Of a DNA stretch of 64,000 nt, positions 55,185 to 61,800 are shown piece after piece. Position numbers and translations under genes: made by a program. The notes beneath the pieces are model-generated. The model was given only the letters and a program-made list of their open reading frames with translations. It had not been told where the DNA came from and searched no databases. Positions within the stretch are counted from its first letter, which is position 1. Each line of letters opens with the position of its first letter. The DNA is taken from positions 25,759 to 89,758 of the forward strand of contig CAYJTG010000003.1 in NCBI GenBank assembly GCA_964373255.1, given 5' to 3'. The stretch is from an uncultured archaeon. GTDB lineage: Archaea > Aenigmatarchaeota > Aenigmatarchaeia > GW2011-AR5.

Positions 55185-55509
55185 AATGAAATCCTGAAAA
55201 ATGTAATTATAGCATGGTTTTATAGATGTGATAAAACTCTTATAGTGAATCAATTCTATGTTCTGCCAGGATTGCATCAGCATGCAAAGGGAATGCAAAC
55301 AGCTTGTATGAGTTGAAACGACTATTTCTGGCTTTTCATGTAGATATAATGAGCTTTCATGCTGTTTCTTCATAGAAACCGTCAGAAAAATTTCAGCTTA
55401 CTAGTTACAACGAGGAAATAATATTCTGTTTGCCTTCTTGTATTGCTATAAAAACGTTATTTTGCAATGATTCCTATGAAGTAAGTCAGGCTTACTTTAT
55501 TTTTGGAGT

Positions 55510-55695
55510 GTGATAACGATGGGAGACGCATTGGTTGTAAAAAGCAAGGTTCGTGCATGGGCAAAGAAGAAGAAAATGAATCTTGGTGGCGACGCCGTTG
55601 ACGCGCTAAACAAGGAAATTGTAAGGCTTGTTGACCGCGCATCGGAGCGTGCAAAGGCTAATAGAAGGTCGACGATAAAGGGCAGAGACGTTTAA
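55510..55695 (+). CDS. Small histone-fold-like DNA-binding protein, apparently truncated (alpha1-L1-alpha2-L2, no alpha3).
   Basis: 'GDAVDALNKEIVRLVDRASERAKANRRSTIKGRDV' parallels archaeal histone alpha2-L2 '...ASEAIKLARHAGRKTIKAEDI'. 61 aa. Likely start at the Met of MGDAL (about 55519). Confidence 0.45.
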   Translation: MITMGDALVVKSKVRAWAKKKKMNLGGDAVDALNKEIVRLVDRASERAKANRRSTIKGRDV

Positions 55696-55757
55696 AAAGA
55701 TGCTGAAAAGAATACAATATTTTAGTTTTCTTTTTATTTTAATCATGCTAGAAAAAA

Positions 55758-55955
55758 TTACCCGATATAATTTTCATCTTCTTCCGGTGTTGTGTCCTCG
55801 GGCATTTGGTTTTCTGGTGTGTTCTCGAGTTCCGGCTTCCTGCTCCTTCTTATACGCTCGACGGGGCCGAGGTATTTGCTTGTAACCTTCTTCCCGTTCC
55901 TAATAGAAGAATAATAATATTTTCTGCCGTTGATTACCTTTATGTGCCTGTTCAT
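55758..55955 (-). CDS. Small basic protein with an acidic C-terminal tail, 65 aa.
   Basis: 'KVINGRKYYYSSIRNGKKVTSKYLG' beta-hairpin-like basic motif followed by an acidic tail 'EDTTPEEDENYIG'. A MITE copy lies in its upstream region. Confidence 0.35.
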   Translation of the reverse strand: MNRHIKVINGRKYYYSSIRNGKKVTSKYLGPVERIRRSRKPELENTPENQMPEDTTPEEDENYIG

Positions 55956-56060
55956 GCGCTACCACTTTCCGTTCGACTGTAGACATGTCGTGGTCTGCAG
56001 TATTTAAAATTTTAGTTAGCGCAATTGCTAAATCGTAAAACATAAAATGCGTGTAAGATT

Positions 56061-56180
56061 GGCACTGTCACCTTAACGGCTGTTGAAACAAACTGACGCA
56101 CTAAAGTGCGTCTATCTGCTTTGACAACAGCCCTTTCTGGGTGGTTAGCAATGGCTAACCACCCTTAAGTTGACAGTGCC
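56061..56180. mobile_element. MITE-like element, copy 2 (about 120 bp). Same TIRs and core as 1525-1721 but without the ~77-bp internal segment.
   Basis: TIRs GGCACTGTCACC (56061-56072) and GTTGACAGTGCC (56169-56180). Flanking direct repeat TAAGATT / AAAGATT. Confidence 0.55.
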
Positions 56181-56199
56181 TGAAAGATTGAAGAAAATG

Positions 56200-58929
56200 T
56201 TATTCAAGTACGACCTTCTTTCCCAATGAGCCGTGGAAGCTGATGAGGACCTCTCCGCCGCAGTCGCACAGGCCTCTTATAGGCGCGCGCCTGTAGCTAC
56301 GGTTGCACGATTTGCACACAAATTCGTCCCATCCGCCCAGTTCGCCGGCTGTATTTTCGTTCGTATCTTCGGTATGGTTGTATGCGATGTCGATGTCCTT
56401 TTTTGTGGTGCGCCTTTTTCCCAGCAGCAGGTCTCCTAAGCTTACCTGCCGTCCGTTTCCAAGCAGCTCTGACTTTTCGACGCCTACCGCAGAGAGAATT
56501 CTTTCTATCGGCGGAAACAGCTGGCTCTCGATATAGTAGTTCGAGTCGATTGGTATGTTGTGCTTCTCGGCGTACGCCGGGTCTTCTGCGCGCTTTGAAA
56601 GCATCAGGTTGCCCTTGATAATAACAAATCCTATCCGATCGCCGATCTTTGGCGCGTCGTATGGGTTTCTTGCCGCAAGCTTCCTTGCAAGCTCTATGTG
56701 CGGAAGAATGCCTTTGTAGCTGTCCAGCCCCTGTGTGATGCCCTTTATGATTGTCAGTTTTTCCATCGGTATCTCGTTCTTGCGCAGCTTGTTCAATATG
56801 CCCTTTATGTAATCTATTGCCTTCTGTACGTCCCCTTCCTTGAGTATTATGTTCAGCGTTGTCATCATCGTCTCGCTCACGAGGGCACACCAATCTCTTC
56901 GCACGGTCTCGATGCCGCGCATGTCTATCTCATCGGTCCACCCGTTATCTGTCTGTTCGAACTTCCAGCCGGCGTATCTCTTTTTTGACAGGATAAGAAA
57001 CGTCCTGTATATTTTCTCAAACTGCAGTTCCAGCTGGCCTGGCAGGTTTTCTGTGACGAATTCTGATATCTTTTTGCCAGTCTCTTTGGCCTCATCCAGA
57101 TTGGTCGTTTTTGTCTTGATGAACATGGAATCCGTGTCAGCGTACAGAACCTCAAGCCCAAATTCTTTTTCCACCAGATTTTTTGTCTTTTCCAGATTTT
57201 CGCGCCCGAAGGCTGTTATAGAGTTCGCAACGTCGATCATGTAAAGCCTTGCCCTCACGTATCCCGTATACCCGTAGAACGAGTTTGACATGTCCTTCAA
57301 TGCGAGCTGCTTGGCGTTGAGGATTCTTCTTTCTTCGCCGGTTTTTGTTTTCATGAGTCCTTTAATTTTGCTTCGCGTCTCGATAAGCCTTTCCAAAACA
57401 GAGGGAAATATTCCCTTGTATAAGTCTTGGTCCACGAAAAGTGTGCCGATCGGCGATTCGTGGTGCTTTAGATCTGCTGTCTCTGATGTAAGGACGCTGT
57501 CTGGCGAAATGTTGTACGTCCTCATGATGGAAGGGTAGAGGCTCTTGAAATCCAGGACTATGACGCACGTATCTGCGTGCAGGCCTTTATTTGGCTCCAG
57601 CACGGTGGCGCCCTTGAGCTCTTTTTCTTCTCGTTCTTTTGTGCGCCTGTAGAGCTCCTGCCTGGAGTGCGCCGATGACATGACAACATCCCTTTTCTTA
57701 AACTCGTGAAGAAGCATTGTCTCTATCCTTTTTGTCTGCCCACCGAAGGTATCCTGAAGAAGGACGCCTGATATCTTTGAAAGCTCAAAGAATTTGTTGA
57801 GCATTCCCTTTTCTATGAGCAGTTTCATCGACAGGTCCGCGTCCTTTCTCGAGTACTCAATGAATTTTACCATATTCTGCCTTGTGCTGTTCCAGAGCTC
57901 TGCCATCTCCGAGTACGCAACCCCGTGTTTTTCCTCGTCGAGGAGCTTCTTTGCTACTGTTCTTAGGTCGTAGCGGTGCAGCTTTACCCACGGGTCTCTT
58001 TTCAGTATCTGGTAGGGGTCAACAACAACGCGCCCGGCTACAATAAACTCCTGGGTTATGCCATAAGTTTTGGAAAATGCGTCCTTGTCACACCTTCCTA
58101 TTGACAAAGGCAGCTTGTTTTGCTTTAGCCTTTCGATTATGTAAGGCAGGTCAAATGAATTTATGTTGTAGCCTGTTATTATGTCGGGATCATAAGAATC
58201 GATAATGCACAGCAACTCTTCGAGCATCTCCTTTTCGTTTCTAAAGCCCCTTACGCCGTCGCCAAAAAATGGTTTCGCCACAAGAACTGTGGATTTTGAG
58301 CCCCTGAAGTCCGGCCTGAAAGAGAGCGATACCATAACGATTGGGTCGTGCCTCGCGTCAACGGGCTTTTTGTCGTCCGAAGGTATGCATTCAATATCAA
58401 GGGCCATATAGCTGAGTGGCGCGTTCTCCAGGCTCTCAACGGGGTTTATTTTGTCTGCCTTGTAAGCCGCGACCTTTGACCTCACTGTTTTTTGTTCGTG
58501 TGTGCCTTCGACCTCTACCCACTGCATGCCGTTAAGTCCGTGGTCTACCATGAACCTGTACTTGAACATGATATCCGCTTCGTACACGTCCTGTGCGATA
58601 CCTGTGGATATGAGCTTCTCCCTGACGTGCGGCACGTCCTGCGGGTTGAACAGCATGACCTTGAGCATCTTTGTTTTGCTCTTCTGATAGCCGAGCGGGA
58701 TGAATTTTTCTGTTGGCTCGATGTCTTTTATTTCTTTCATGCCCTCGACGGCCGTAATGGCTTTTCCTGCCGTCATTTTTTCGCTCAGCCTCATGTAGAA
58801 GTAGGGAGTTACCTTGTCGTAAAGTACACAGCACGGTGCCCCGTTTTCTGTGCGCCCAAATATTCTTATAATGGGCTTGTTAGTATTGACAAAATAGTCT
58901 ATGTCTAATATCTGCATTTTGAAAAGCAT
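56200..58929 (-). CDS. polB: Family-B DNA polymerase (PolB) with an intact 3'-5' exonuclease domain and a C-terminal Cys4 zinc-ribbon extension.
   Basis: Exo I 'LDIECIP', Exo II 'YNINSFDLPYI', Exo III 'YSRKDADL'. Pol motif A 'DFKSLYPSI', motif B 'KDMSNSFYGY', motif C 'YADTDS'. C-terminal 'CKSCNRSYRRAPIRGLCDCGG'. Start at the Met of MLFKMQILDIDY, preceded by a GGGGGT Shine-Dalgarno-like sequence. The ORF track extends 5' to 59037. Confidence 0.9.
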   Translation of the reverse strand: MLFKMQILDIDYFVNTNKPIIRIFGRTENGAPCCVLYDKVTPYFYMRLSEKMTAGKAITAVEGMKEIKDIEPTEKFIPLGYQKSKTKMLKVMLFNPQDVPHVREKLISTGIAQDVYEADIMFKYRFMVDHGLNGMQWVEVEGTHEQKTVRSKVAAYKADKINPVESLENAPLSYMALDIECIPSDDKKPVDARHDPIVMVSLSFRPDFRGSKSTVLVAKPFFGDGVRGFRNEKEMLEELLCIIDSYDPDIITGYNINSFDLPYIIERLKQNKLPLSIGRCDKDAFSKTYGITQEFIVAGRVVVDPYQILKRDPWVKLHRYDLRTVAKKLLDEEKHGVAYSEMAELWNSTRQNMVKFIEYSRKDADLSMKLLIEKGMLNKFFELSKISGVLLQDTFGGQTKRIETMLLHEFKKRDVVMSSAHSRQELYRRTKEREEKELKGATVLEPNKGLHADTCVIVLDFKSLYPSIMRTYNISPDSVLTSETADLKHHESPIGTLFVDQDLYKGIFPSVLERLIETRSKIKGLMKTKTGEERRILNAKQLALKDMSNSFYGYTGYVRARLYMIDVANSITAFGRENLEKTKNLVEKEFGLEVLYADTDSMFIKTKTTNLDEAKETGKKISEFVTENLPGQLELQFEKIYRTFLILSKKRYAGWKFEQTDNGWTDEIDMRGIETVRRDWCALVSETMMTTLNIILKEGDVQKAIDYIKGILNKLRKNEIPMEKLTIIKGITQGLDSYKGILPHIELARKLAARNPYDAPKIGDRIGFVIIKGNLMLSKRAEDPAYAEKHNIPIDSNYYIESQLFPPIERILSAVGVEKSELLGNGRQVSLGDLLLGKRRTTKKDIDIAYNHTEDTNENTAGELGGWDEFVCKSCNRSYRRAPIRGLCDCGGEVLISFHGSLGKKVVLE

Positions 58930-58981
58930 AATAATACCCCCGAATGAAACATTTCGTTTTATTTCATAATGTTCTTTACTA

Positions 58982-60115
58982 TTACTTTCCGAATATCTGG
59001 ACCTGCTTTGCATCCCTTGTTTCAAGGTCGATGACAACCGGCCGGAAGTCTGCGAGCATCGACCCTGATGTGGCTATTGTAACTGATTTGTAATTCGTGA
59101 CCTGTGACCCGCTGGCGTGGCCGAAGCACACGATGTCCGGGGTGTCTTCGAGCACAAAGTAATTTTCCTCTGATACCGCCTTTCCGTGGCCGAGGTAACG
59201 CTTTTTTAGCATGCTTAATTCAAATTCGTGTATGACGAGTATCTTTACCCCGTTTATCTCCAGAAACGCCGGATCGCTCAGTGATAATATTTTCCCCGTG
59301 CTGAACTGAACCGGCAGTCTTGGATAAGCGCCGCGTGTGTCCCGCTCGCCCGGGATAAATACAACCTCTTTTTCTCTGCAGTACCTGTCTACCATTCGTT
59401 CGAACGTGCCTATATCACCGACGTCGCCTGCCACAACAAGGTATTTTATATCTTCATTCTCAAACCATAAAAAGAATTTTTCTATTTCACCGATAGGCGC
59501 CTCATCGATCATCAGGTTAGAAACAAGGCACACTTTCCCCCAGCCGACAGTTGGCTGTCGCAGCGGTATGTCCGGCTGTATGACCTGCTTTCCGAACAGG
59601 ATGTTTTTTGATGAAATGGCCCTTATCGCAACGACGTCGTCTGTACCTATATCAGGCTTACCCTCAAAAATGATTGAGGCCGCCCCTGTGTTGTCTTCGA
59701 TATCGACGGTGGTCTTGTCGCCGTTGTCCCTTATGTCACGCACAATTCCTATAACGTAGGACTCATCGAGGTACGCGCCGACCTTGTTTATCGAGACGAA
59801 CGGTTTTCTTATTCTGCTTGTCAGTATTTCTCTGATTTTTTCGTACTTTGCCCTGTAAAAATTTGCAAAATCATCTGGTGTCAGCGTGGTTTTCGGCGCT
59901 GTCAGATTTTTGATTATTTTTATTTCGTCTTTTTTTGCTGCGCTTTCTCTGTGCGCAAAATCCGGCCTATCGAGTACGAGGTCTCCGCCAACCATGCCGC
60001 TGATTTGTTCGTCTGTTATCGTTGCTAACAAATCCGGTGTCAGAAGCTTGCCCTTGCTCAGCAGCTTTTTTACGATTTCCTCTTTCATGCTAAAGATACC
60101 GCCTTTATAGATCAA
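58982..60115 (-). CDS. DP1-like protein, homologous to the PolD small subunit / eukaryotic polymerase B-subunit. Its calcineurin-like phosphoesterase motifs look degenerate.
   Basis: 'FLWFENEDIKYLVVAGDVGDIG' matches the DP1 'YLxIAGDxVDG' block. The DxH position reads 'VSNLMID', the GNHD position reads 'IPGERD', and the GHxH position reads 'CFGHAS'. 377 aa. Confidence 0.55.
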   Translation of the reverse strand: MIYKGGIFSMKEEIVKKLLSKGKLLTPDLLATITDEQISGMVGGDLVLDRPDFAHRESAAKKDEIKIIKNLTAPKTTLTPDDFANFYRAKYEKIREILTSRIRKPFVSINKVGAYLDESYVIGIVRDIRDNGDKTTVDIEDNTGAASIIFEGKPDIGTDDVVAIRAISSKNILFGKQVIQPDIPLRQPTVGWGKVCLVSNLMIDEAPIGEIEKFFLWFENEDIKYLVVAGDVGDIGTFERMVDRYCREKEVVFIPGERDTRGAYPRLPVQFSTGKILSLSDPAFLEINGVKILVIHEFELSMLKKRYLGHGKAVSEENYFVLEDTPDIVCFGHASGSQVTNYKSVTIATSGSMLADFRPVVIDLETRDAKQVQIFGK

Positions 60116-60130
60116 AACGTCTCTTGATGA

Positions 60131-61390
60131 TTAGCTGAACTTGCCGTCAAGAAACTGCACTACCCTGTCAAAGGCACTTCCGGTAACCGATAAAACAATT
60201 TCCCTCGTTCTTCCATGACGACCGTTTGATACGACCTTCGTCGTTATTATGCTCAGCATGTCTAATTCGCCTATAAGATCGCTGACCCTGCGCTGTGTTA
60301 ACGGTTTCAGCCCGTTGCCATCACAGGTTGCCTTATACGCCTCGTATACGTCCCCTGTAAATATCCTTTTGTCGTTCCATCCTTTCTGGGTTTTCATTTT
60401 TTCTGTGACCTTGATGATTGCGTATAAAACTGCCTGAGAGTGTGTTGGCTGGGCTTTTATGCCTTCTGTTATGCGGTCCAGGTCCATTTTCTGCTCAGCC
60501 ATGTCAACGTGCTGCTCTTCAACGGCGCTGTGCCCCATTCGTTCGGCAACCTCGCCTGCCACGCGCAAGAGGTCTAGCGCCCTTCTTGCGTCACCGTGCT
60601 CCTGTGCAGCTATGGCAGCGCACTTGTTTATAACCGCCTCGTCAACAGCGCTTGGTATAAAGCCGTGTAACACCCTTTCTGTGAGTATGTCTTTAATCTG
60701 GGCTGCGTTGTACGGCCTGAACAAGATTTCTTCCTCAGACAGCGATGATCTGATGCGGAGGTCTAGGTTGTTCTGCAGTGAGAGGTCGTTGGTTATGCCG
60801 ACAACGGTTATGTAGCTGTTCTTGAGCTCGTGATTTATGCGTGTGAGGTTGTACAAAAACTCGTCCCCGATCTTCTTCACCAAGGTGTCGACCTCATCCA
60901 GAACAAGAATAATTGTGCTATTCATACGTTCAACCCTGTCAAAAAATTTTCTGTAAAGCACGTTTGTCGGCAGGCCTGTATCAGGGACGTGTTCACCAAG
61001 CTCTTTCAGCAGCTGTGCGACAAGCCTGTATTCTGTGTCTGCCACCTTCTTCATCTTACAGTTTATGTAGACAACGCGGAGCTTTGGGCTGTTTGCCATA
61101 GAAATGAGCTGGCTTGCGACAAATTTCATGGTTATTGTCTTTCCGGTACCGCACGTGCCGTAAATAAATATGTTGTTTGGCCGGTAGCCCTTCAGCACCG
61201 GCGCGAGGACCGAGCTTATCTGTCCTATTTCGTTGTCACGGTGTGTGATCTTCTCAGGAATAAACAGCGATGTCAAATAGTTCTTGTCCCTAAAGATGTT
61301 GCCCTTATGTATGTATTGAGAAAATATGTTGCTACTAATGCTTGTCTTTTGGACCAGTCTTGACACTACCAACACCCCACCAGAAATCAT
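60131..61390 (-). CDS. orc1: Orc1/Cdc6 replication initiator, an AAA+ ATPase with a C-terminal winged helix.
   Basis: Walker A 'GTCGTGKT', Walker B 'ILVLDEVD', sensor motifs. 419 aa. Confidence 0.9.
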   Translation of the reverse strand: MISGGVLVVSRLVQKTSISSNIFSQYIHKGNIFRDKNYLTSLFIPEKITHRDNEIGQISSVLAPVLKGYRPNNIFIYGTCGTGKTITMKFVASQLISMANSPKLRVVYINCKMKKVADTEYRLVAQLLKELGEHVPDTGLPTNVLYRKFFDRVERMNSTIILVLDEVDTLVKKIGDEFLYNLTRINHELKNSYITVVGITNDLSLQNNLDLRIRSSLSEEEILFRPYNAAQIKDILTERVLHGFIPSAVDEAVINKCAAIAAQEHGDARRALDLLRVAGEVAERMGHSAVEEQHVDMAEQKMDLDRITEGIKAQPTHSQAVLYAIIKVTEKMKTQKGWNDKRIFTGDVYEAYKATCDGNGLKPLTQRRVSDLIGELDMLSIITTKVVSNGRHGRTREIVLSVTGSAFDRVVQFLDGKFS

Positions 61391-61800
61391 TACATTATGA
61401 CAACCACGCCAAACAGTAATGATTCAACCACAATATAAGTAAAAACAACCCAAAGTAATTACACCATTATTTCTCTTGGAGGATATATAAACATATCTCT
61501 ACTGGAAATCAACGTTACTGAAAATATAGTTTCAAAACAAGACAGCTCCCCTATATTTCTTGTGGAACTTTTAAACAAACAATTACATAAATAACACTGT
61601 TATAAGAAAGAAAGGGTACGTTTTGTGTTTCTTTTCTTCAAAACTTGTTCTCACCACTAGTCGTTCATTAGAAATAATGGGGTCTGCTATACAGAAATGC
61701 GTATAAATTGCGTGATACCGTACTAATTCCCGATAAAACCAATAATAATCCAACAACACAATAACAGACCAAACCAATTTGTTCTTGCTTATTCCACAAT
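61391..61800. promoter_or_regulatory. Candidate replication origin (oriC): an AT-rich intergenic region next to orc1 carrying ORB-like TCTnnTGGA repeats.
   Basis: Direct repeats TCTCTTGGAGG (~61472), TCTACTGGAAA (~61498) and TCTTGTGGAAC (~61558). An inverted copy ATTCCACAAT (~61791) lies across an AT-rich stretch (61570-61790). The arrangement sits directly upstream of orc1. Confidence 0.4.

Follow-up and report, generated by a model that had tools for sequence, protein, structure and literature searches.

The window analysed here is a stretch of 64,000 nucleotides of contig CAYJTG010000003.1 (assembly GCA_964373255.1, positions 25,759 to 89,758) from an uncultured archaeon of the Aenigmatarchaeota. 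On its minus strand lies a replication gene cluster in which a cdc6 gene is followed by a gene for a DP1-like protein and then by the gene of a B-family DNA polymerase (PolB). This report is concerned with the C-terminal tail of that PolB, which carries a putative zinc-ribbon module, and with the relationship between this tail and the DP1-like neighbour. The features discussed are listed in Table 1, together with four divergent tailed polymerases found on other contigs.

Table 1. Features of the replication cluster in the window, and divergent tailed PolBs on other contigs (contig names given with the positions).
Feature	Position	Strand	Description or basis
PolB gene	56200..58929	-	909 residues plus stop; B-family DNA polymerase, Aenigmatarchaeota 'B6' group
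Zinc-ribbon module (putative)	56203..56334	-	PolB residues 866-909; C872, C875, C888, C890; loop R880-R881-A-P883; terminal beta strand GGEVLISFHGS; homologue of DP2 Zn-III
Charged variable linker	56335..56424	-	PolB residues 836-865, predicted disordered; alignment and AlphaFold2
PIP-like box (PCNA-interacting protein motif)	56425..56448	-	Q828-VSLGDL-L835, internal, directly after the thumb; translation and Pfu alignment
DP1-like / B-subunit-like gene	58982..60088	-	368 residues; N-terminal helical domain, OB (oligonucleotide/oligosaccharide-binding) fold, degenerate phosphodiesterase domain; directly upstream of PolB
Orc1/Cdc6 gene	60131..61390	-	Head of the cdc6 - DP1-like - PolB cluster; Pfam Cdc6_C, Cdc6_lid, AAA
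Three ORB-like repeats (origin recognition box)	61461..61683	.	Two direct, one inverted; upstream of cdc6; candidate replication origin
Divergent tailed PolB P0266	L083 2317-4707
Divergent tailed PolB P0281	L084 807-3158
Divergent tailed PolB P0271	L085 3355-5694
Divergent tailed PolB P0310	L086 2242-4584

The polymerase and its C-terminal tail

The minus-strand open reading frame (ORF) that holds PolB spans 56200..59037, and the form found in public collections has 909 residues and begins at the ATG at 58929. Pfam recognizes DNA_pol_B_exo1 at residues 114-325 and DNA_pol_B at residues 396-814. The exonuclease sites (Exo I D178/E180, Exo II N255/D260, Exo III Y359/D363) and the polymerase sites (motif A D460, motif B K545/N549/Y552/G553, motif C D598/D600) are all invariant in our alignment A3, and by these motifs both activities of the window PolB appear intact. 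The best 120 homologues are 50-70% identical to it, and those that are named belong to metagenome-assembled genomes of Aenigmarchaeota; the next closest are PolBs of Methanosarcinales at 34-39% identity, which Kazlauskas et al. likewise place in group B6. Many of the close homologues are lengthened to 1300-1390 residues by inteins (Pfam Intein_splicing, LAGLIDADG_3; examples are P0006, P0024, P0029, P0030, P0036, P0047 and P0065), and the window PolB is intein-free.

The full-length PolB was modelled by AlphaFold2 with a mean predicted local distance difference test score (pLDDT) of 84.4. The structures of the Pfu, Tgo and KOD polymerases align with it up to residues 832-835 (positions 767-769 in these polymerases, which are about 775 residues long), and a tail of approximately 74 residues extends beyond the end of the Pfu/Tgo alignment. 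The original prediction, made by a model from the DNA letters and translated ORFs, had described a PolB of about 910 residues that continues for about 80 residues past the thumb and ends in CKSC-x11-CDC, all within 56200-56480, an interval that encodes PolB residues 817-909 and the stop codon. Both lengths agree well with what we measured, and the Cys4 motif is present, but the spacing between its two halves is x12 rather than x11.

Directly after the thumb, the PIP-like box pairs in the structure alignment with RQVGLT at the C-terminus of Pfu PolB, where the PIP box of that polymerase begins. Its first residue, Q828, is invariant among relatives, the QVSLGDLL box holds no aromatic residues, and AlphaFold2 predicts a short helix at residues 831-836. 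The Methanosarcinales B6 relatives, which have no tail, carry QKGLFDF at this position and a second PIP box at their extreme C-terminus. The internal QVSLGDLL box of the window PolB may bind PCNA, judging from its sequence. The distance from the GxGxQ motif just after the thumb to the first Cys of the tail, which takes in both the PIP-like box and the linker, ranges from 18 to 51 residues among relatives with a median of 35; the linker region is poorly conserved, and residues 852-861 of the window PolB are modelled with a pLDDT below 50. The C-terminal anatomy of the protein is a thumb followed by a PIP-like box, a flexible linker and a Zn-III module.

The four Cys of this last module, arranged as C872-x2-C875-x12-C888-x-C890 (CKSC-NRSYRRAPIRGL-CDC, at window positions 56260-56316), are the only Cys after residue 681, and the protein ends in GGWDEFVCKSCNRSYRRAPIRGLCDCGGEVLISFHGSLGKKVVLE. 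A C-terminal C-x2-C-x12-C-x(1-2)-C motif occurs in 118 of the 120 best homologues, the other two being apparently cut short before it. Since so many homologues keep the motif, and since the four Cys are invariant in more than 100 relatives (with tail alignments at 45-49% mean column identity), the motif is not a product of chance. The residues that link the two Cys pairs follow K-S-[YF]-R-R-x-P-L-x-G with little variation. Of 111 tails, 94 have R or K at position 5 of the x12 loop and 94 have R at position 6; P stands at position 8 in 107, L at position 9 in 102 and G at position 11 in 109. The 19 residues after the last Cys are predicted to form a beta strand. AlphaFold2 places strands in the tail at residues 869-872, 893-898 and 901-903 (pLDDT about 65-79), and predicts helices nowhere after residue 836. 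Most likely the four Cys bind a single zinc ion.

When a profile of the tail was compared with all sequences of the PDB, the sole significant matches were to the Zn-III module of the DP2 subunit of PolD, at residues 1127-1158 of Thermococcus kodakarensis 6KNB_B (E 4.6e-7) and residues 1119-1150 of Pyrococcus abyssi 6HMS_B/8PPT (E 3.8e-6). In this alignment R880, R881 and P883 of the tail fall on R1131, R1132 and P1134 of P. abyssi DP2. An hhalign comparison of the tail with 16 DP2 C-terminal domains gave a probability of 98.7% and an E of 3.1e-16 over 42 columns, running from EFVC to the last residue of the tail, so that the GGxLLISYHGS strand corresponds to GGxLxLTVHxGS of DP2. The tail also carries the KxRRxP loop that marks Zn-III, with the Lys shifted by one position in the PolB family and R877 at that place in the window copy. 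Against 1.84 billion representative proteins the tail profile found 120 matches at E up to 1e-3, nearly all of which are the C-termini of PolBs of the B6 group or of DP2 proteins.

The match covers columns 42-84 of the 142 in the DP2 alignment, and by either hhalign or AlphaFold2 the tail has nothing equivalent to the helices that flank Zn-III in DP2 or to the PIP motif at the DP2 C-terminus. The original prediction had named two candidate relatives, the C-terminus of DP2 and the CysA/CysB domains of the eukaryotic polymerases, and only the first of these was recovered. The tail profile had no PDB match to a eukaryotic CysA/CysB C-terminal domain at E up to 10, Pfam zf-DPOE and zf-DNA_Pol did not match the tail, and a Pfam search with the tail alone returned just sub-threshold ADK_lid and DUF530 and no polymerase zinc-finger family. 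The Pfam model of the Pol epsilon zinc finger, zf-DPOE, does match a DP2 C-terminal domain. As far as these alignments indicate, the tail is homologous to the Zn-III module of DP2 and to that module only.

The consensus of the PolB tail in Aenigmatarchaeota is CKKCxKSYRRMPLxGxCEC, and the deeper Aenigmatarchaeota PolBs (L001-L006 and L017) have CxxC as their second knuckle. We had considered CxC at this knuckle to be a peculiarity of the PolB clade. This was rejected because many DP2 Zn-III modules also have CxC rather than CxxC (P0285, P0292, P0295, P0311, P0314 and others); one of these, CVKCNKKYRRMPLSGQCSC, matches the PolB tail consensus almost exactly.

The DP1-like neighbour and its association with tailed polymerases

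A protein identical to the window DP1-like protein is on record. At the sequence level its similarities are weak, being limited to Pfam Metallophos_2 and DNA_pol_E_B and to PDB matches with DP1 at about 1e-6. The AlphaFold2 model (pLDDT 89.3), however, has P. abyssi DP1 as its top Foldseek match (E 7.5e-23, TM 0.73), followed by the B subunits of Pol epsilon, delta, zeta and alpha, p59, p50 and p70 among them (E 1e-16 to 1e-18). Model and matches agree on an OB fold joined to a calcineurin-like phosphodiesterase fold, and the DP1-like identity that had been proposed for this gene is upheld by its fold.

The phosphodiesterase motifs of the window protein have decayed, with SNLMID for SDxHxG in motif I, GERD for GNHD in motif III and GHAS for GHxH in motif V. 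The motif III His is kept in none of the 108 members of the DP1-like family, and the other catalytic positions drift. What is invariant in the family are not the catalytic residues but the acidic OB residues E131, D132 and D150 and the PDIPLR linker, all of which are common to canonical DP1. By motif check, the active 3'-5' exonuclease site that distinguishes archaeal DP1 from a eukaryotic B subunit is absent, and the phosphodiesterase site is dead. The decay is uneven across the family (P0121-P0235): many members keep SDLHLD, GD, GN[VM]D and GHTH, and with them the metal ligands, having lost the motif III His, and the window protein has lost five canonical positions. The N-terminal helical domain, which is DP1N-like, is conserved in the family and would fit a role as a scaffold or in tethering to GINS.

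The association of this gene with tailed polymerases was surveyed in both directions. In a scan with one genome per species, which yielded 14 Aenigmatarchaeota loci with a tailed PolB, an iterated DP1-like profile found a DP1-like gene in 13. In nine of these loci the gene immediately precedes PolB on the same strand, and in four it is found beside cdc6, 2-4 kb away. The exception, L009, is uninformative because it is a 5.9-kb contig with a short flank, about 1 kb downstream of PolB. Among tail-less PolBs (Methanosarcinales B6 and other archaeal PolBs), none of 66 loci has a DP1-like gene within 10 kb. The reverse search, which began from the DP1-like protein, gave 55 metagenome loci (alignment A6). 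A PolB is visible in 32 of them, and every one of the 19 PolBs whose 3' end is on the contig has the tail. The question raised at the outset, whether PolBs adjoining DP1-like genes always carry this tail, can be answered in the affirmative for all PolBs that are complete. Adjacency of PolB and the DP1-like gene is frequent, but not universal.

The order cdc6 - DP1-like - PolB recurs in related loci, and contigs whose PolB is recorded under archaeon GW2011_AR5 match the window in the order cdc6, DP1-like, PolB, NAC, TctA, SecDF. Another locus, L139, proved to be a canonical DP1-DP2 locus in which the motif sits inside DP2. A Methanothrix PolB (L053) was at first taken to be tailed, as tblastn reached query residue 905, and was rejected since its translation ends in two PIP-like boxes with no zinc tail.

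Probable docking of the DP1-like protein and other possible roles of the tail

We consider it highly probable that the tail is a copy of the DP2 Zn-III module on an active PolB, and that it docks the nuclease-dead DP1-like neighbour to give a two-subunit polymerase of eukaryotic type. The homology to Zn-III, the DP1 fold, the decay of the active site and the co-occurrence were computed here; the interaction between DP1 and PolB, and the absence of DP2, are taken from the literature. In PolD, the KxRRxP loop of Zn-III occupies an acidic groove of DP1 that is flanked by its OB and phosphodiesterase domains (Raia et al. 2019, PMC6355029), and a Zn-III peptide of 20 residues binds DP1 with nanomolar affinity according to work cited by these authors. 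A combination of AlphaFold3 and yeast two-hybrid showed that the DP1 of Aenigmatarchaeota binds the tailed PolB, termed PolB-DP2CTD, and not canonical PolBs (Nat Ecol Evol 2025, PMC12680538). The suggestion of a docking module made in the original prediction thus has the support of the Zn-III homology, the co-occurrence and this published two-hybrid result.

The probable arrangement is as follows. The tail is a minimal copy of Zn-III, which a flexible linker joins to the PIP-like box of a PolB with full activity, and its four Cys most likely surround one zinc ion. The OB/phosphodiesterase groove of the nuclease-dead DP1-like protein most likely receives the basic RRxP loop, although the details of this interface are our inference from sequence. 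The result would be a PolB catalytic subunit with an inactive B subunit, built like eukaryotic Pol alpha, delta and epsilon, in a lineage for which the loss of DP2 has been reported. The N-terminal domain of the DP1-like protein may in turn tether PolB to GINS/CMG.

Several observations weigh against the docking role. The helices through which DP1 is contacted as well in PolD and eukaryotes are missing from the tail, which would leave the zinc module as the sole means of binding. The published two-hybrid experiments used other Aenigmatarchaeota proteins and not the pair from the window (PMC12680538). Three to four well-flanked DP1-like loci from metagenomes (L110, L112, L114 and L125) have no PolB within 6 kb. 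There is no DP2-sized ORF within the 64 kb of the window, but the window alone cannot show that DP2 is absent from the genome. Finally, the four divergent PolBs on virus-like contigs (Table 1) are tailed, and no DP1-like gene was found on their short contigs by gene calls and precomputed Pfam matches, the DP1-like hidden Markov model having been run on L083 only.

Other roles for the tail have to be set beside docking. Zn-III of DP2, together with the nearby basic residues R1122, K1125, K1129 and K1145, touches the nascent duplex (Raia et al. 2019, PMC6355029), and the tail and linker of the window PolB are rich in K and R, which would suit a tail that is mainly a DNA-binding or processivity element. 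The best-conserved residues of the loop, however, are those of the RRxP DP1-docking loop, and DNA binding alone explains neither the tight co-occurrence with the DP1-like gene nor the published two-hybrid interaction. We regard this as improbable for the main role of the tail, though DNA binding and docking could coexist. It is also very improbable that the tail serves to bind another protein (the large subunit of primase, as in Pol alpha, or PCNA or GINS directly), with the DP1-like gene as a coincidental operon mate. There are precedents, in that the C-terminal domain of eukaryotic Pol alpha binds PriL and a Heimdallarchaeal PriL binds DP2CTD in two-hybrid (PMC12680538, figure legend), but the canonical archaeal primase showed no interaction with the C-terminal domain of Baldrarchaeial PolB3 (PMC12680538), the window tail lacks the helical portion of such a domain, and the tail has no PIP motif, as the PIP-like box lies upstream of it. 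That the tail is a functionless remnant of recombination between DP2 and PolB, as its form of a truncated, 'degenerate' DP2 C-terminal domain might suggest, is scarcely credible: strong purifying selection acts on its Cys and loop residues among relatives with overall identities of only 40-70%, the linker next to them varies freely, and neither a dN/dS ratio near 1 over the tail nor frequent loss of the Cys in natural variants was seen.

The divergent PolBs P0266, P0271, P0281 and P0310 are 22-27% identical to the window PolB and end in a tail like DP2 Zn-III, for example FICVNCKKTYRRPPLLGQCDCGG. Their contigs (L083-L086) are 5-9 kb long and virus-like, with many small unidirectional ORFs, ThyA or ThyX, a dTMP-kinase-like gene, UDG, PD-(D/E)XK, LAGLIDADG and phrog_20335, and the best match of P0266 is phrog_262 (DNA polymerase). 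In the closest relatives of P0266 the C-terminus is a PIP-like QQTLF with no tail behind it, and this suggests that the Zn-III cassette was fused independently. Zn-III may, with rather low probability, be a portable DP1-docking cassette that unrelated PolBs have acquired behind their PIP box on more than one occasion. No IMG/VR viral contig matched the thumb-plus-tail alignment, P0266 or two back-translated tail patterns (CxC and CxxC), and no INPHARED phage matched the tail. If the contigs do belong to archaeal viruses, such tailed polymerases may plug into the DP1 or DP1-like subunit of the host and so hijack its replisome.

The surrounding locus and relationship to known polymerases

The 400-bp intergenic region upstream of orc1/cdc6 contains three ORB-like elements, at 61461-61483 (ACACCATTATTTCTCTTGGAGGA), 61548-61568 (CCCCTATATTTCTTGTGGAAC) and, inverted, 61661-61683 (ACCCCATTATTTCTAATGAACGA). 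They resemble known ORB elements and would mark a candidate oriC at the head of the cdc6 - DP1-like - PolB cluster. With such an oriC the cluster would have the oriC-cdc6-DP1-DP2 layout of Euryarchaeota.

Downstream of PolB, about 1 kb of the window (55185-56199) holds only ORFs of fewer than 70 residues. At the equivalent place, a GW2011_AR5-type contig (L081) has a gene for a primase-polymerase like those of the archaeo-eukaryotic primase (AEP) superfamily (218 residues) along with small ORFs, and the AEP-like gene may have been lost or replaced in the window. Further away, from about 20000 to 44000, the G+C content is 0.31-0.38 versus 0.41-0.48 elsewhere. This block is rich in genes for glycosylation and polysaccharides, including PMT_2 mannosyltransferases, a Polysacc_synt flippase and UDP-glucose dehydrogenase, and may be a variable cell-surface island.

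The arrangement of polymerase and partner seen in the window is already known. PolB group B6, including 'B6-aenigma1', was defined by Kazlauskas et al. (Kazlauskas, Krupovic, Guglielmini, Forterre, Venclovas; NAR 2020, PMC7544198), who found that most Aenigmarchaeota have no DP2 and an inactivated DP1, and who proposed the B6 PolB as a replacement for DP2. The domain in Aenigmatarchaeota has since been termed a 'degenerate DP2CTD' (Nat Ecol Evol 2025, PMC12680538). According to the same paper, the combination of a retained DP1 and no DP2 is confined to Baldrarchaeia and Aenigmatarchaeota. The window has the inactivated DP1-like gene; for the absence of DP2 we rely on these two studies. It shares with B6-aenigma1 its lineage and a PolB with one C-terminal Cys4 most like DP2 Zn-III beside an inactivated DP1, and as nothing substantive sets the two apart, the window PolB is another member. 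The details that the present analysis adds are the internal PIP-like box, the 42-column homology that reaches the C-terminus, and the condition in which the active site of the window DP1-like protein is found.

Compared with the C-terminal domain of PolD DP2 (clamp-1 plus Zn-III; P. abyssi 6HMS/6T8H/8PPT and T. kodakarensis 6KNB), the tail shares F-x-C-x2-C-x4-RR-x-PL-x-G-x-C-x(1-2)-C-GG followed by a beta strand, and Zn-III is the DP1-docking element of DP2. The window module, however, sits on a PolB and not on a two-barrel polymerase, it lacks helices alpha1' and alpha2'/alpha3' and the C-terminal PIP, and its DP1 partner is, by its motifs, catalytically dead. The PolB3-DP2CTD of Baldrarchaeia (PMC12680538) is likewise a PolB with a C-terminal domain derived from DP2, in a lineage with DP1 and without DP2, and interacts with DP1 in yeast two-hybrid; the Baldrarchaeial domain is full-length and more eukaryote-like, while that of Aenigmatarchaeota is shorter and has a different predicted structure (PMC12680538). 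Another PolB, P0303 (1014 residues, 36% identical to the window PolB), has its Zn-III motif 78 residues before the C-terminus; its C-terminal domain is therefore longer and may include the helices, and the protein may represent what the literature describes as the Baldrarchaeia-type ('B6-aenigma2') PolB. In eukaryotic Pol alpha, delta, epsilon and zeta a PolB catalytic subunit is also tethered through a C-terminal metal module to a subunit with an OB fold and an inactive phosphodiesterase, but their C-terminal domain exceeds 100 residues, versus about 44 in the window tail, which has one Cys4 and not two (CysA and CysB), no helical bundle and no detectable sequence similarity.

As the arrangement was described in 2020 (PMC7544198) and tested experimentally in 2025 (PMC12680538), the window adds one well-resolved member rather than a discovery. 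With its PolB, C-terminal zinc module and inactive B subunit of DP1 type, the cluster would represent an archaeal counterpart of the eukaryotic replicative design, and it bears on the origin of eukaryotic Pol alpha, delta and epsilon from parts of PolB and PolD, a significance that is already in print (PMC7544198, PMC12680538).

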